Source: a virus (Duplodnaviria; Heunggongvirae; Uroviricota; Caudoviricetes). Taken from it: a stretch of 64,000 nt of DNA. The notes beneath the pieces were generated by a model. That model worked only from the letters and a program-made list of their open reading frames with translations. It had not been told where the DNA came from and did not search any database. Location: the IMG/VR virus record IMGVR_UViG_3300045988_138358, one strand, 5' to 3'. Within the stretch, counting starts at the first letter, position 1, and the number at the start of each line of letters is the position of its first letter. The position numbers were made by a program, and so were the translations under genes. Below, piece after piece: positions 7,988 to 13,301 of the stretch.

Positions 7988-8755
7988 TCACCCCATAGAT
8001 ATCGAGGTTTCGGTAATAATACGTTTTGCGTCCAACTCCCATGCTGTGATCACGTCTGCAATCACACTTATCGGCGCTTGTGTGGCATAAATACGCTCTT
8101 CTCCAATTGGTGCCGAAACATCCGTAAATCCGACTTCTTTGGCATCCTGTATCGAGCAAATCAGCGGGACCGGGACACGAACAAGGTGAGTGGTTGCTTC
8201 AAATTGTGTACCTGTCATCAGGCGAAGCCGTGCGCCCAGCGAATTACACATCAGACTCATGGTCGCTTTATCAGTTGCCATTAACGTAACGTCATACGTC
8301 AGAATGGCCTGGGTGTATTCCAGTTCTGCTAAAGGCATTCCGGTATCCGGTTCGCAAAAACTGGCTACTTTTTTGCGGTCAATCTGCTGATCATCGTTGA
8401 TATAATTGATATCCATAGTGCGTGAGATATTGACCAGGGGGAGAGCATCCCGGTTAATGTTCTGGTTTTCAGGTTTTCTCCCTTGCCCGGCATTTGCGCG
8501 ACGAACTGCTTTAAGAAACTCGATCGCATTGTCGAAACGGGCCACATAGACACGCTCTGCTGGTGGACGATTCAGGAATGACGCAAAGCGTTTTTCTTCC
8601 GGCGCGGGGGCCACCAGTAAGATATCAGAAAAGATATTGCTGATTAGCGTAGCAAACGCGTTATCCACGTTTTCAAAGCCCGTGGTCTGGAATTTTCCTG
8701 TGCGTGAGGTTTGCCATTCACCTGTTCGCGCCAGGAGGGTTTTATTTGAAGTCAT
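7988..8755 (-). CDS. hypothetical phage protein
   Basis: 255-aa ORF in the same tightly packed minus-strand operon. Confidence 0.5.
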   Translation of the reverse strand: MTSNKTLLARTGEWQTSRTGKFQTTGFENVDNAFATLISNIFSDILLVAPAPEEKRFASFLNRPPAERVYVARFDNAIEFLKAVRRANAGQGRKPENQNINRDALPLVNISRTMDINYINDDQQIDRKKVASFCEPDTGMPLAELEYTQAILTYDVTLMATDKATMSLMCNSLGARLRLMTGTQFEATTHLVRVPVPLICSIQDAKEVGFTDVSAPIGEERIYATQAPISVIADVITAWELDAKRIITETSISMG

Positions 8756-9549
8756 TCGATCACTCCGTTTTGAGTCGTATCAAAATTCCTGGCAGGTATG
8801 CAGTAGTAAAGCGAACCAACATGCTGTGTGCCGTAGCTAAAAATACGGTGCACGTACCACCAGCGGCGGGCTACGCCGTTTACCATCTCTTCATTCCATT
8901 CAAGAATTGATCCGACGGGGACGTTATTTGCTGCAATACGCAGAATCAGAACATCATCGGTTAAGCCATCCTGCTCACCGTCTGCGTCAATCGCATGGAA
9001 AGAGTCACGCCCGTCCGGGTTATCCAGCACATAAACGATTTCAGGTTCCTGGTAAGTCAGTTCGCGCTGGTTGTTATCCAGTTCAGTGAATGACTCTTCT
9101 CCTGTTTCGTCGCTGACTACCCCATATGTGCCAACATCTGGTCGATATAAGAGAGCCTGAAACGCGTCTGGGCTGGATTCAATAATCAGCATCCAGTCTG
9201 CGCGGATTTGGTCGTTAAAGGCTTTATGCCCGTTATAGCGTGCTTTTAGCTGTGGAGTTGGTTCTCTGCCAGCCAGGGAAGGTGGAAGTATGGCTATATC
9301 TGATTCGGCAGCATCCGGAGTAAGGCCAGCGTTGCTATCAGCAAAATTATCATGGCTATCAGCTTTGGCGGCGGGTTGCTCTTCCAGAATGCTGAATGAA
9401 TCCGAACCGGTATTGCCATGTTCCGGCGCACCTCCTGCATTCGCTTCAATCGGCGCTGGCGTTTCTCTCTGCGTGCTGTCATGTTCTGACTCCTTACTTG
9501 CCAGGTTTGCATCGTCAGCAAACCATTCGTCAAAACGGCCCATAAGCAT
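8752..9549 (-). CDS. hypothetical acidic protein
   Basis: ORF track 8752..9645; start moved to internal Met (MLMGRFDEWF) because the first 32 codons look non-coding. Confidence 0.4.
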   Translation of the reverse strand: MLMGRFDEWFADDANLASKESEHDSTQRETPAPIEANAGGAPEHGNTGSDSFSILEEQPAAKADSHDNFADSNAGLTPDAAESDIAILPPSLAGREPTPQLKARYNGHKAFNDQIRADWMLIIESSPDAFQALLYRPDVGTYGVVSDETGEESFTELDNNQRELTYQEPEIVYVLDNPDGRDSFHAIDADGEQDGLTDDVLILRIAANNVPVGSILEWNEEMVNGVARRWWYVHRIFSYGTQHVGSLYYCIPARNFDTTQNGVIE

Positions 9550-9705
9550 CCTCAAAGGTCGATCTGTCAGGTATCGAAAGGAAGATTTTCGGGAGATTGT
9601 GATTTTGGATGAAGGAGGGGGAATCCATAAAATGCACTTGCGCACAGTGCAACAGTGCGCTATAGTTATGGCATTCGGTAATCATCACGGAGGATCAAAT
9701 GACTA

Positions 9706-10008
9706 ATGACCAAAAAAATTAACATAAAGGATTTCAGGGATGCGTGGCTTGATGATTTTTTTGAATTTTCAACACCACATAGAAAGATACCTCCTGATAT
9801 TCATATGACATTGTCACGGAAGTTGGACATTATCAATGCCGCAACTACCTGTAAGGATTTAAGATCACCACCAGGTAATCGGTATGAGGAACTGTCAGGG
9901 AAGCTAAATGGCTATTCATCAGTAAGGGTGAATAAGCAATATAGGTTAATTTTTAAGTGGGTTAACGGAAAGGCCGAGGACTTGTATCTCGACCCTCACA
10001 AATACTAA
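9706..10008 (+). CDS. higB: type II toxin HigB (RelE/ParE superfamily killer protein)
   Basis: 100 aa; toxin-first gene order and C-terminal NGYSSVRVNKQYRLIF pattern typical of HigB-type killer proteins. Confidence 0.75.
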   Translation: MTKKINIKDFRDAWLDDFFEFSTPHRKIPPDIHMTLSRKLDIINAATTCKDLRSPPGNRYEELSGKLNGYSSVRVNKQYRLIFKWVNGKAEDLYLDPHKY

Positions 10009-10078
10009 AACAGATACCCGGTTACGGACCGGGTTCTGACCAGAGTCCACTTAATACGCACGCTAGTAAGGGCAAAAA

Positions 10079-10417
10079 ATGAAACAGGCAACCAGAAAAC
10101 CGACGACCGTAGGTGATATCCTTCTGTACGAATACCTGGAGCCGTTAGAGCTGAAGATCAACGAGTTAGCAGAAATACTTCATGTTCATCGTAACACCGT
10201 AAGTGCTCTTGTTAATAATAATCGTAAGCTAACGATGGATATGGCATATCGCCTGGCAAAAGCATTCGATACTTCTGTAGATTTTTGGATTAATCTTCAG
10301 ACCGCAGTAGATCTGTGGGAAGTCGAAAATGATATGCGCGTTCAGGAAGAGTTAAGTCGTATCAATACTGCTGAAAAATTTATTTCTCAGCGGAACCTGA
10401 ATAAAAAAGCAGCCTGA
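10079..10417 (+). CDS. higA: antitoxin HigA (XRE-family HTH)
   Basis: 112 aa with HTH segment (LAEILHVHRNTVSALVNN) directly downstream of higB. Confidence 0.75.
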   Translation: MKQATRKPTTVGDILLYEYLEPLELKINELAEILHVHRNTVSALVNNNRKLTMDMAYRLAKAFDTSVDFWINLQTAVDLWEVENDMRVQEELSRINTAEKFISQRNLNKKAA

Positions 10418-10435
10418 TATAGTAAAACACATACA

Positions 10436-10466
10436 AAAAGCCCACTTAGCAAGTGGGCTTTCCTTT
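10436..10466 (+). terminator. hairpin terminator after higA
   Basis: GCCCACT-TAGCA-AGTGGGC stem followed by a T-rich tract. Confidence 0.45.
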
Positions 10467-10473
10467 GTAATTA

Positions 10474-10674
10474 ATGAACATTAAACCTATCCGTACAGAA
10501 CAAGATTATGAGGCCGCACTGCGTGCGGTCGAACCGATGTTCGATAACGAACCGGAAATGAATACTCCGGAAGGTGATTTCTTTGAGGTTATGAGTCTTC
10601 TCATTGAGGAGTACGAGAAGAAACATTACCCAATTCAGCCACCATCACCTGTTGAATCTTTTAACTATCCATAA
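10474..10674 (+). CDS. antitoxin-like N-terminal domain protein, lacks HTH domain
   Basis: 66 aa (MNIKPIRTEQDYEAAL...PEGDFFEVMSLLIEEYEKKHYPI) resembles the N-terminal half of HigA-like antitoxins; the ORF ends before any HTH domain. Confidence 0.45.
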   Translation: MNIKPIRTEQDYEAALRAVEPMFDNEPEMNTPEGDFFEVMSLLIEEYEKKHYPIQPPSPVESFNYP

Positions 10675-10695
10675 TAAAAGTAATCAGGATAAGCT

Positions 10696-11424
10696 ATGAT
10701 GTCAGAAAAAGTTACAGATAATCCGTCTATAAATGAAACAGAACTAAAATCATTTTCTGAAATAATAAAAGATAAAATATTTAACAAGGTTTTTGCATAT
10801 GTTGTCATTTCTTTTCTAATTTTTAACTGGAAGGATATTTTAATTATATTAAAGTCAAAGGACGACATCCTATATACATTATCTATTGTTTTTGTTGGTG
10901 GTAATGTCCCGTTCTTTGATAATTGGATTGTATCCCCGTGGGTTTATCACGTTGTAATCCCATTTGTTTATGGAGTATTTGCATCTGTGTTAGCTCCTAT
11001 TCTCACACTGAAGATATCTAAGCTAACAAGTAAATTATACACTGAAATAAGATATTTAGATGAAGCTGCTGATTATGATAAAAGAATAGAATTGCAAAGA
11101 AAGAAAACAAAGTTAAATCAAGCAACCAATGACGCTAAATATTCAAAACAAATCTTAGATGAAAATGAAAATAAACTTAATGACCTAGCTAAGAAACAGC
11201 GAGAAATTTGCGGCGCGATAAAACTATTGCATACTGATGTTGGCAGTATTATTGAGCTATATAAAAATAAGGGGGTTAGCATTGAATCTCCGCAAGATTT
11301 ATGTGATTTTATAGTCGCTATAAAAAGCACATCATTCTATAATGATGACAAGCATTTTAATAAATTGGTGTCTGATATTTCCAGTTTGTTTGATAATACT
11401 GGAATTGATCTTTCAAAAAAATGA
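10696..11424 (+). CDS. low-GC membrane protein with C-terminal coiled coil, unknown function
   Basis: 242 aa; three hydrophobic helices in the N-terminal half, Lys/Glu-rich coiled coil after; GC content clearly lower than neighbours. Confidence 0.6.
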   Translation: MMSEKVTDNPSINETELKSFSEIIKDKIFNKVFAYVVISFLIFNWKDILIILKSKDDILYTLSIVFVGGNVPFFDNWIVSPWVYHVVIPFVYGVFASVLAPILTLKISKLTSKLYTEIRYLDEAADYDKRIELQRKKTKLNQATNDAKYSKQILDENENKLNDLAKKQREICGAIKLLHTDVGSIIELYKNKGVSIESPQDLCDFIVAIKSTSFYNDDKHFNKLVSDISSLFDNTGIDLSKK

Positions 11425-11457
11425 AAGCCCAGCATAAACTACTAGGCTATGTGTGGT

Positions 11458-12651
11458 TTATGCTTTTTTCACGTACTCTATAAACATCTTCTCAGCCTGT
11501 TCTTGTGGCGTTCCAGCCATGACAAGCGCATCAATGAACGCCTGCTTCTTCAGTGCGAACTGATCGGCAAGGCGTTGCTGAAGTTCCTTATTTTTCTGTT
11601 TCTCACGTTGCAAGGCCGCTTCTTTTGCAGCCGCCCGTTTTTTCTGTGCGTCTGACAACTTTCTGGCCCTGGTCAATTGGTCACGTAGCTTGTCGATCTT
11701 GCCGTTGTCCTTTGCCAGTTTTGTACTTAAAGCTGCCTGGCGTTTCTGATAGAGCCTCCATTCGCGTTTGGCGGCTTCAACGTTCGTTTTACTGCTACGA
11801 TTGCGATTAAACTCCTTCTCGTCTTCTTTTGAGAAGTGTTTAGTTGTACGGCGGCGATCGTCACCAAATGCAATTTGCGTTGCAGCCTTTTGTAGCGCAC
11901 GAGCAATACTCATTTGCCAACTGGCGGACTGTAACCGCGTCATTGAGTGGATCACGTGTTTACAGGCGACGCCTTGCAGCTTCGGGTTGCGAACTTTTGG
12001 ATAGGCGTATTCTTTTGGCGGTGCCAGGGCAAAGTTACCCGCAGTGGCGATGTAACGATACCAGTATTGATGACGACCACAGTCACAATCGAAAGACACT
12101 CGCCCGGCGCACAGTGATTTAGTGATTTTGAGAGCTGATTTATCGTCTTCTGCGATGTCATCAACCATCTGATCCCATTCTTCAAAGCGTATCCGGACGA
12201 TATGGTGCTGGTGGACGGATATATCCGATGCTTCTACGCGGATATTAATCACATTGTGGCGAAGAGATACGGGGGTAGCTCTTTTGATACCAGATCCGTC
12301 ATCCACGGCGTTATTTGCACGCTTAATATCGATTGCCTGGCTGGATGCCACCAGCTGGGCGTATGTGATGCCAGCCGTCTTGCTGTCATATTTTTCGCGC
12401 GTTTTACTCCGTAGCTTTTCGAAACCTTTCAGGTCGTCTCGCGTGAAGAACGTGCCGCCTTTTTTCTTCCCTAACTTGAGAATATCTTCGGCGGATTTGT
12501 TCCTCAGTCTACCTGGCGTCAGCGTCCGGTGAGCTTGTCGGCGCTTACGGGTTTGTTCTTTCCTGATAATCTCGAATAAACGCGTGAAGTCCTTAGAGGA
12601 CAGGCCGTCAGTGATATAGCGCCCGTCCTGGTTTTTCAGGAAATCAGGCAT
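11458..12651 (-). CDS. SWIM-type zinc-finger protein with basic coiled-coil tail
   Basis: 397 aa; CxC...CxH arrangement (FDCDCGRHQYW...GVACKHVIH) consistent with a SWIM finger. Confidence 0.5.
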   Translation of the reverse strand: MPDFLKNQDGRYITDGLSSKDFTRLFEIIRKEQTRKRRQAHRTLTPGRLRNKSAEDILKLGKKKGGTFFTRDDLKGFEKLRSKTREKYDSKTAGITYAQLVASSQAIDIKRANNAVDDGSGIKRATPVSLRHNVINIRVEASDISVHQHHIVRIRFEEWDQMVDDIAEDDKSALKITKSLCAGRVSFDCDCGRHQYWYRYIATAGNFALAPPKEYAYPKVRNPKLQGVACKHVIHSMTRLQSASWQMSIARALQKAATQIAFGDDRRRTTKHFSKEDEKEFNRNRSSKTNVEAAKREWRLYQKRQAALSTKLAKDNGKIDKLRDQLTRARKLSDAQKKRAAAKEAALQREKQKNKELQQRLADQFALKKQAFIDALVMAGTPQEQAEKMFIEYVKKA

Positions 12652-12973: not shown

Positions 12974-13166
12974 AACAAAGCCTCTCAGTCATAACCTGGG
13001 GGAAACTGTATGCAGGGTGTGAAATGCGAGAAACAGACAGGCCACCAGTTCAGGGGGATGTGGTTCATAAATCCCCTCACTGGTGACAAGTGACTTTCAT
13101 TAATCTTTATGCGGGGGCCAGCTTCATTTGCTGGCATTAGATTAAAAATTAAACGGAGTGAATAAC

Positions 13167-13301
13167 ATGGATGTTATCTTCGAATTATTAATGCTAATTG
13201 ATCTGTTTATGAACGCTTCATTGACCACTCAAATACTGGCGTCAATATTTTTGTTACTCTTCTACCTGGTATTGAGGGAGTTAACAAAGCTACTAATGTG
13301 A
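13167..13301 (+). CDS. small hydrophobic peptide, 44 aa (candidate membrane toxin)
   Basis: ATG at 13167 preceded by GGAG; MDVIFELLMLIDLFMNASLTTQILASIFLLLFYLVLRELTKLLM; lies antisense between two minus-strand genes. Below the ORF track cutoff. Confidence 0.3.
   Translation: MDVIFELLMLIDLFMNASLTTQILASIFLLLFYLVLRELTKLLM

Follow-up and report, generated by a model that had tools for sequence, protein, structure and literature searches.

A truncated antitoxin gene and a hypervariable, putatively phage-directed membrane-protein gene in a remodelled cassette of D6-like phage-plasmids

Prophages carry accessory transcription units, termed morons, that are extra DNA relative to related phages, deviate in base composition, have a promoter and terminator of their own and are expressed from the repressed prophage (PMC3594210). 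Among them is HK97 gp15, which lies within the tail operon and encodes a small inner-membrane exclusion protein that blocks DNA entry (PMC3594210); P22 SieA, an inner-membrane superinfection-exclusion protein, occurs in three sequence types less than 30% identical (PMC10883804). Genes of the toxin-antitoxin (TA) type are found in the three-gene defence system PD-lambda-2, in which the third gene is required for defence and the PD-lambda-2B protein joins a HigA-like Xre domain to an ImmA/IrrE peptidase (Vassallo et al. 2022, PMC9519451). In Caulobacter, HigX is a transcription factor associated with the membrane, encoded directly downstream of higBA, independent of HigBA and ancestral to the host (PMC13384398). 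Here we describe a locus downstream of a higB-higA pair in a 64,000-nucleotide stretch of tailed-phage DNA (IMG/VR record IMGVR_UViG_3300045988_138358; hereafter, the window). The locus consists of a 66-codon antitoxin-like open reading frame (ORF), which we call the stub, and a gene for a 242-residue predicted inner-membrane protein, which we call X.

An earlier note on this DNA had pointed to a stub with the N-terminal half of HigA-like antitoxins and without a helix-turn-helix (HTH) domain, followed by a low-GC gene for a membrane and coiled-coil protein, and had taken the pair for foreign cargo laid out like an abortive-infection locus. Both ORFs were confirmed at their positions after higB-higA, and the stub is indeed a truncated gene of the HigA family. 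The stub is ordinary; X is the notable part, belonging to an uncharacterised membrane-protein family restricted to mobile elements. In our view the locus is best explained as a remodelled cassette that combines a dead antitoxin gene with an autonomous, prophage-expressed exclusion or abortive-infection factor, X, and we give this explanation a probability of about one half. The exclusion or abortive-infection function is our best reading of the genomic context of X.

Gene X and its alleles at the tail-gene slot

The window is a D6-like (P1-related) phage-plasmid, and among isolated phages Escherichia phage D6 comes closest to it. Over the region 9600-11500, the window is 100% identical to plasmids from E. 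coli (p23AR1183B) and Salmonella. In PLSDB, 112 records match this region, of which 110 are non-mobilizable and most are ~75-95 kb in size; among complete E. coli genomes, 95 of 5,426 have a match, plasmid-borne in every case. The cassette is flanked by homologs of the P1 tail genes 7 and 25, the first 95-100% identical across E. coli and Salmonella D6-like loci and the second 96-99% identical at the protein level (gp25) among the same loci and 81% identical in Enterobacter-type loci. In P1, genes 26-25-7-24-6-5 form a single late operon driven by LP26, in which just four bases separate genes 25 and 7; D6-like elements have ~1.8 kb there. Because genes 25 and 7 are contiguous in the P1 operon, the whole cassette is, judging from this gene order, an opposite-strand insertion specific to the D6 lineage. 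P1 and P7, whose tails are of the same kind, lack X.

X has a GC content of 29.5% (0.27-0.32 along the gene) against ~49% in the flanks, and the gene that converges on it is the gene 25 homolog, so that the composition break and the converging neighbour described in the earlier note both hold. An AGGA Shine-Dalgarno motif lies 6 nt upstream of its ATG. The coiled coil was likewise borne out, but the three transmembrane helices were not: the hydropathy profile peaks strongly twice, around residues 42 and 95, and has in addition a short hydrophobic helix (58-65). An AlphaFold2 (AF2) model built from a 29-sequence alignment (predicted local distance difference test score, pLDDT, 81; a two-sequence run was unusable at pLDDT 51) has helices at 12-28, 31-43, 45-53 and 58-65, an uninterrupted one at 81-192, and two more at 199-209 and 219-234. 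X would thus consist of an N-terminal amphipathic helix, a first transmembrane segment (TM1, ~32-52), the short hydrophobic helix, a second transmembrane segment (TM2, ~82-106), a coiled-coil stalk to residue 192 and a small C-terminal helical domain (193-242). Because Lys/Arg clusters precede TM1 (K25, K27, K31) and follow TM2 (K106, K109, K113, R119), we infer an N-in and C-in topology that would place the C-terminal domain and the 81-192 helix beyond the membrane in the cytoplasm. The stalk is modelled as a helix and probably forms a parallel coiled-coil oligomer.

The top Foldseek matches of the X model in the PDB are channel pore modules (K2P, NaK, MthK, Kv; KcsA-like), which share with X residues ~31-106 (window 10786-11013) the layout of a transmembrane segment, a short helix and a second transmembrane segment. 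A tetrameric K+ or cation-channel pore was rejected as unsupported: the matches have E 2.9-9.8, probability <=0.10 and TM-score <=0.27, and there is no conserved filter motif. Among family members, the loop that joins the short helix to TM2 differs in both sequence and length.

Each of the ~30 D6-like loci examined has an X-family gene in the slot. The allele of D6 itself, orf73, also encodes 242 residues and is collinear with and 58% identical to window X, both being full-length members of phrog_8191. Altogether, at least 12 alleles at 90% clustering are present at the slot, 33-58% identical to the window allele, in contrast to the 94-100% identity of orf72, the gene that precedes orf73 in D6. 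All of these X alleles are low in GC (0.28-0.33, against 0.48-0.50 in the flanks). Foreign cargo is therefore an apt description of the cassette as a whole, which P1 lacks, and of an allele brought in by recombination, but low GC does not mark a recent one-off acquisition, since every allele at the slot shares it. The earlier note had also held that conservation of the gene in all relatives would speak against its idea, and here the result is divided: the gene family is fixed at the slot, while the allele is highly variable.

This variation is unevenly distributed along the protein. Averaged over pairs of the 12 alleles, identity reaches 0.71-0.75 at residues 21-66 and 0.59 in TM2, compared with 0.27 in the coiled coil (126-192) and 0.36 in the C-terminal domain. 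Conservation lies in the membrane module, and hypervariability in the coiled coil and C-terminal domain. The alignment of the wider family has N44 and P89 invariant and S39 and P101 nearly so, all in the membrane module. The pattern of X alleles at one fixed slot reads as that of an arms race.

Within 11 window-type loci, the X ORF is intact in 11 of 11 despite 35 segregating sites. The ratio of nonsynonymous to synonymous polymorphism (pN/pS) is 0.31 for X, compared with 0.08-0.09 for gp25 (0.08), gp26 and higA' (0.09), the antitoxin gene of the pair upstream of the stub; the corresponding values for its toxin gene, higB', and for gp7 are invalid and were ignored, as a 1-nt indel in one locus (L016) shifted the register. 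X is under purifying selection and evolves faster than its neighbours. The window type is also the commonest form, matching 71 of 102 PLSDB records with a full-length X and found in 54 of the 95 complete E. coli genomes that match the region. In one E. coli plasmid (NZ_CP134379.1), an IS3-family element is inserted within the region.

The truncated antitoxin gene and the remodelling of the cassette

D6 orf72 encodes 119 residues with an HTH_3 domain at 63-115, and the stub is identical to its residues 1-65 at 59 of 65 positions (91%). Codons 1-59 of the stub match orf72; codons 60-66 are diverged orf72-like sequence (VESFNYP, where D6 has IEAIKFR) and are followed by a stop. The remaining ~165 nt of orf72, together with the hairpin that comes after it in D6, are missing from the window, so that the HTH domain is deleted, and the stub has no Pfam match. 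RefSeq annotates the identical sequence as a pseudogene, "incomplete; missing C-terminus". In PADLOC, full-length orf72 matches positions 1-119 of 402 of the PD-Lambda-2_B profile (E 4e-43), and the stub matches positions 1-65 of it (E 2.5e-16). Nucleotide identity to D6 is essentially 100% up to window position ~10635 and collapses after 10655.

The gene directly upstream of the stub is the antitoxin of a different TA pair, and the cognate toxin of orf72, a HigB of family PF09907, is found nowhere in the 64-kb window. We conclude that the stub is most probably a pseudogene, the orphaned remnant of a HigA-type antitoxin left by cassette remodelling, its PF09907 toxin having been displaced earlier. 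The stub ORF is unbroken in 11 of 11 window-type loci, but with three polymorphic sites only, this is statistically uninformative. The stub has no evident Shine-Dalgarno motif in front of it. The stub is not a working partner of X.

To trace how the cassette was assembled, slot proteins were mapped onto 32 loci from plasmids, IMG/VR contigs and D6, which fall into types A, A', B and C (Table 1). In all D6-like loci, orf72 or the stub lies directly upstream of X. The HigB of type A is a full-length match to PD-Lambda-2_A in PADLOC (E 1e-41), whereas higB' of the window has no PADLOC match, so that the window has no PD-Lambda-2_A component. Type A and type B loci have a terminator-like hairpin between orf72 and X, which is deleted in the window. 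The exchange that separates types A and B is precise: the PF09907 higB and its promoter are replaced by the higB'A' module, with the right junction at the orf72 ATG and the left junction at the 5' end of the gene 7 homolog. Between the hexamers of the type A promoter lies a perfect palindrome, GTCCCA-TAT-TGGGAC, which is lost in type B, in type C and thus in the window, and which is likely an operator for orf72 (HigA). Every window-type X allele (95-100% identical) accompanies a truncated orf72, and because the two always travel together, one event produced both; the allele was imported by recombination, with breakpoints near 10655 and 11445.

At the level of sequence, a stepwise history of swaps is shown for the locus. 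The older form of the cassette consists of higB (PF09907), orf72, a terminator-like hairpin and X, on the strand opposite to the tail genes. In one lineage, higB and its palindrome-bearing promoter were exchanged at the orf72 ATG for an unrelated higB'-higA'-hairpin module. In the sub-lineage of the window, a further recombination or deletion inside orf72, near codon 60, then introduced a different X allele and removed the HTH half and the hairpin.

Table 1. Coordinates and composition of the window locus, of the cassette types in D6-like elements and of other contexts of X
Feature	Locus	Coordinates	Strand	Basis or remark
P1 tail gene 7 homolog, left flank (RefSeq: shorter 263-aa form)	window	8752..9645	-	conserved backbone
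higB', RelE-like toxin	window	9706..10008	+	PF05015 (Rts1 HigB-like; HigB-like_toxin), E 4e-35
higA', cognate antitoxin	window	10079..10417	+	N-terminal HTH_3, residues 16-70, E 7e-11
GC-rich hairpin between higA' and stub, terminator-like on both strands	window	10437..10461		arrived with higB'A' module
Stub, truncated orf72 (HigA family, C-terminal-HTH type), 66 aa	window	10474..10674	+	D6 orf72 comparison, RefSeq, PD-Lambda-2_B, phrog_10398
Left recombination breakpoint of imported X allele	window	10636..10655		first mismatches 10636 and 10651; D6 match ends 10655
X, 242-aa predicted inner-membrane protein	window	10696..11424	+	phrog_8191; 21 bp after stub
Hairpin between convergent X and gene 25 homolog	window	11426..11448		right boundary of variable cassette near 11445
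P1 tail gene 25 homolog, right flank	window	11458..12651	-	conserved backbone
Type A: HigB (PF09907, 100 aa), orf72 (119 aa, 4 nt after HigB), X	L004, L005, L006, L025, L027, L028, L031, L032			
Type A higB promoter	L004, L005	1720-1748 in each		TTTACA, 17 nt, TACTAT
Type A': second HigB/HTH pair (103 + 139 aa), then X	L007, L030; L008			Enterobacter phage-plasmids (L007, L030); Klebsiella IncFIB plasmids (L008, X cut by IS903B)
X cut by IS903B	L008	2950-4377		large Klebsiella IncFIB plasmids
Type B: higB', higA', hairpin, full-length orf72, X	D6, L003, L019-L021, L023, L024, L026; L029			orf72 split in L029
Type C (window): higB', higA', hairpin, stub, X	L002, L010-L017, L022			
X solo	L009			Enterobacter chromosome
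X solo, between gpV and gpS	L035-37		opposite	P2-like Klebsiella prophages
X between replication and nin-region genes	L050		opposite	lambdoid prophage
X adjoining podovirus-type portal gene	L072-80		opposite	
X beside UmuC-like, C5-methylase or DUF1353 cargo	L055, L054, L078			
X in islands (with DUF4942 and H-NS; or with AAA_13 ATPase)	L040, L048			
X (distant homolog P0041), 12 nt after DUF4145 protein	L045	3309-4732		adjoins resolvase gene
X after TacA-GNAT	L034; L083	3068-4726; 1737-3672		second P1-like lineage
X after HigB-HTH	L042	3221-4708		second P1-like lineage

Some other features lie close to the cassette. On the path from gene 25 to gene 7, the minus strand of the window has terminator-like hairpins at 11448-11426, 10463-10435 and 10034-10016. 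A second variable slot is found between gene 26 and mat (window 12974-13301), where L003 (4894-5465), L020 and L029 carry an extra RelE/ParE-HigA pair. In the window this second slot holds lower-GC DNA and a very hydrophobic 47-aa ORF (13158-13301, plus strand), positioned like D6 orf76/orf77. An Rfam search over 9400-11700 gave noise only.

The wider X family and the role of X

A profile built from two alleles and run against 1.84 billion representative proteins recovered 41 clusters at E < 1e-3. Because further scans of viral contigs added members, the family is larger than these 41 clusters, and all 46 of the 46 X ORFs collected score 49-236 bits with the family hidden Markov model (HMM). 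Other searches were less productive: a word-indexed protein search returned two alleles only, and the same two with the family profile, a scan of genome contigs gave one locus, and one of the viral scans gave none. Named members come from E. coli, Salmonella, Klebsiella, Enterobacter, Citrobacter, Pantoea and Pseudocitrobacter and are all annotated "hypothetical"; the exception in host is one partial member labelled as an Enterococcus faecalis metagenome-assembled genome. Going by where its members lie, the family is restricted to mobile elements of Enterobacterales. We found no characterisation of it in the literature. A link to P2 orf30-type genes was unsupported, and a P0024-type relative occurs in no sequenced phage except D6.

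Outside D6-like elements, X is found alone, with other cargo or after TA pairs (Table 1). Its genes have often been inserted into structural operons of phages on the opposite strand. In the second P1-related lineage, the cassettes occupy another morphogenesis-gene site, with PmgG, tail-tube, PmgC and PmgB genes as neighbours. Two of its loci, L034 and L042, have backbones ~80% identical and same-site cassettes that differ throughout, their X proteins being only 27% identical. The DUF4145 protein that precedes X in L045 matches the single-gene defence system PD-T7-4 (E 4.8e-13). By a rough tally, X is linked to a TA pair in ~5 of ~23 independent contexts. TA linkage thus recurs in several unrelated combinations and is not universal.

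Under the explanation that we favour, X would be an autonomous accessory gene, or moron, expressed from the prophage and in no need of orf72. Its product would be an N-in, two-pass inner-membrane protein whose conserved module anchors the long cytoplasmic stalk and the C-terminal domain. At the inner membrane, the hypervariable cytoplasmic parts would recognise components of other phages that invade, or of the machinery by which these deliver their DNA; the membrane module would then block entry or collapse the membrane. The link to a neighbouring TA pair would be transcriptional read-through at most. We take X to be independent of orf72 because it stays intact, stands alone elsewhere, is separated from orf72 by a hairpin in types A and B and is commonest after the truncation of orf72. 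Of the features that define a moron, X represents extra DNA relative to related phages and is deviant in base composition; for a promoter and terminator of its own, there is a hairpin at 11426-11448 after the gene and no convincing promoter upstream of it. The idea of abortive infection is plausible in light of the hypervariable cytoplasmic part, the confinement of the family to mobile elements, the TA linkage and the PD-lambda-2A/B-like partners in relatives. Defence-flavoured neighbours across the family comprise these PD-lambda-2A/B-like proteins (HigB and orf72), the PD-T7-4-like DUF4145 protein, the AAA_13 ATPase and the TA pairs.

Several observations weigh against this explanation. Neither consensus scans nor reading of the junctions by eye gave a convincing sigma-70 promoter upstream of X or the stub, and higA' is separated from the stub by a hairpin (10437-10461). 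That the prophage expresses X is an assumption, the weakest point of our explanation, and X may be made by low-level read-through. X has no match in Pfam, NCBIfam or PADLOC or among PDB sequences or folds, a PDB profile search returned coiled-coil noise only, and a PHROGs search gave phrog_8191 and weak PHROGs of unknown function, none functionally annotated. A pN/pS of 0.31 denotes constraint, not positive selection, and weakly constrained coiled coils change quickly, so that some of the hypervariability may be neutral. X is also broken at times, by a frameshift in L026, by a truncation in L031 and by IS903B in ~54 records of large Klebsiella IncFIB plasmids; because it is lost or broken in some loci, it is dispensable. 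Finally, the recurring order of TA pair and then X may mean functional coupling.

Such coupling is the core of the main alternative, in which X is the third working part, sensor or effector, of a tripartite system in the manner of PD-lambda-2 or TAC. X would be tied to the TA operon, for example derepressed when the labile antitoxin decays, and in the window it would be reached by read-through from higB'A'. We regard this as possible but doubtful. X does follow type II TA pairs of several unrelated kinds, on the same strand and at a distance of 14-92 nt: PF09907 HigB with orf72 in D6-like type A, TacA-GNAT in L034 and L083, the second HigB/HTH type in Enterobacter phage-plasmids and Klebsiella IncFIB plasmids, and a related HigB/HTH pair in L042, which shares a P1-like backbone with L034 yet has a different TA and X cassette at the same site. 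Moreover, the type A partners resemble PD-lambda-2A and B, whose defence requires a third gene (PMC9519451), and the deletion in the window removed the orf72 terminator, so that 21 nt now separate the stub from X. In the wider family, however, the majority of independent contexts lack a TA pair, and in types A and B terminator-like hairpins separate orf72 from X. X was kept, and is now in its commonest form, after HigB was replaced and orf72 truncated, and Caulobacter HigX offers a precedent for a membrane protein encoded after higBA that acts independently (PMC13384398). A further, tentative idea would make the X family a new class of inner-membrane defence or exclusion proteins that sense phages. 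In its ancestral setting, X would be the third, specificity-giving component of a PD-lambda-2-like HigB-HigA-X system. Its effector would be the two-pass module (N44 invariant in TM1; P89, G93, S97 and P101 conserved in TM2), the exchangeable coiled-coil stalk and C-terminal domain would set phage specificity, and the alleles at the slot would be a population-level specificity repertoire under frequency-dependent selection.

It is unlikely, in our judgement, that X serves the phage-plasmid life cycle or host physiology instead of defence, whether by tethering or scaffolding at the membrane, as a factor in envelope stress or lysogenic conversion, or by modulating lysis or the assembly of tail or baseplate. 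X is embedded in structural-gene regions of several phage types, its transmembrane anchor and long stalk give weak coiled-coil matches to tethers such as ATP synthase subunit b, and no defence homology was found for it. Against such a role, X and the late genes lie on opposite strands, P1 and P7 lack X, and X is dispensable and occurs also on non-phage plasmids and in a chromosome; its extreme allelic diversity in near-identical backbones is unexpected for a housekeeping phage function. Less probable still is a pairing in which X damages the membrane and the HigA-like N-terminal half of orf72 or the stub neutralises it. Despite the position of orf72 or the stub immediately upstream of X in all D6-like loci and the unbroken stub in 11 of 11 window-type loci, the canonical partner of orf72 is another gene, that of the PF09907 HigB, which in type A lies 4 nt upstream and has a promoter containing a palindromic operator. 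X has no upstream partner in many contexts and follows unrelated TA pairs in others, and the stub has its three polymorphic sites only and no evident Shine-Dalgarno motif. The orf72-X pair was rejected on these grounds, and X does not fit a type II toxin in that it stands without an obligate adjacent antitoxin in L009, L035-37, L040, L048, L050 and others. We also see very little prospect that X is non-functional, hitch-hiking DNA decaying like the stub. The broken copies (L026, L031 and the IS903B-cut Klebsiella plasmids) and the missing promoter would fit decay, but 11 of 11 intact ORFs with 35 segregating sites and a pN/pS of 0.31 do not, and neither do full-length homologs across genera, with invariant membrane-module residues and family HMM scores of 49-236 bits on 46 loci.

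In E. coli and Salmonella of clinical and livestock origin, D6-like phage-plasmids are common. Elements that are otherwise nearly identical show sharp differences in few places, and this slot is one of them. The locus shows, step by step, the remodelling of a TA-linked cassette, through exchange of the toxin, decay of the antitoxin left without its partner and retention of the third gene. Should X be a defence or exclusion factor, it would bring into the repertoire a membrane-protein family that is unannotated and missed by tools such as PADLOC, would provide a natural allele series for mapping phage recognition by a membrane protein and would bear on phage-therapy host range in Enterobacterales. 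If X has no phage phenotype, the finding is a pseudogene beside an ordinary prophage gene.

Comparison with known systems

The closest counterpart is the orf72/orf73 pair of D6 (MF356679.1; D6_72 and D6_73), which has the same slot and gene order. D6 differs in having a full-length orf72 with its HTH domain and a hairpin after it, where the window has a truncated gene and a different X allele; orf73, like the window X family, is annotated "hypothetical protein". PD-lambda-2 and the type A relatives both have three genes, the third of which is not an obvious toxin or antitoxin. However, orf72 and the stub share only the Xre part of PD-lambda-2B and lack the ImmA/IrrE peptidase, which makes up ~70% of that protein, and X is unrelated to PD-lambda-2C (a relative of a P4 phage antitoxin), its alleles matching no PADLOC model. 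The window itself has lost the PD-lambda-2A-like HigB and has only a truncated form of the B-like gene. X differs from Caulobacter HigX in lacking a DNA-binding domain and in being carried as cargo by mobile elements; the case of HigX nonetheless stands as a caution against reading function from adjacency. X showed no sequence or fold similarity to characterised superinfection-exclusion or abortive-infection membrane proteins, and no such kinship was found with gp15 or SieA in particular. It is nevertheless like these two in being a prophage accessory gene of deviant composition with an inner-membrane product (in X, a predicted one), and it differs from them in its larger size, with a ~110-residue cytoplasmic helix and a C-terminal domain in addition.

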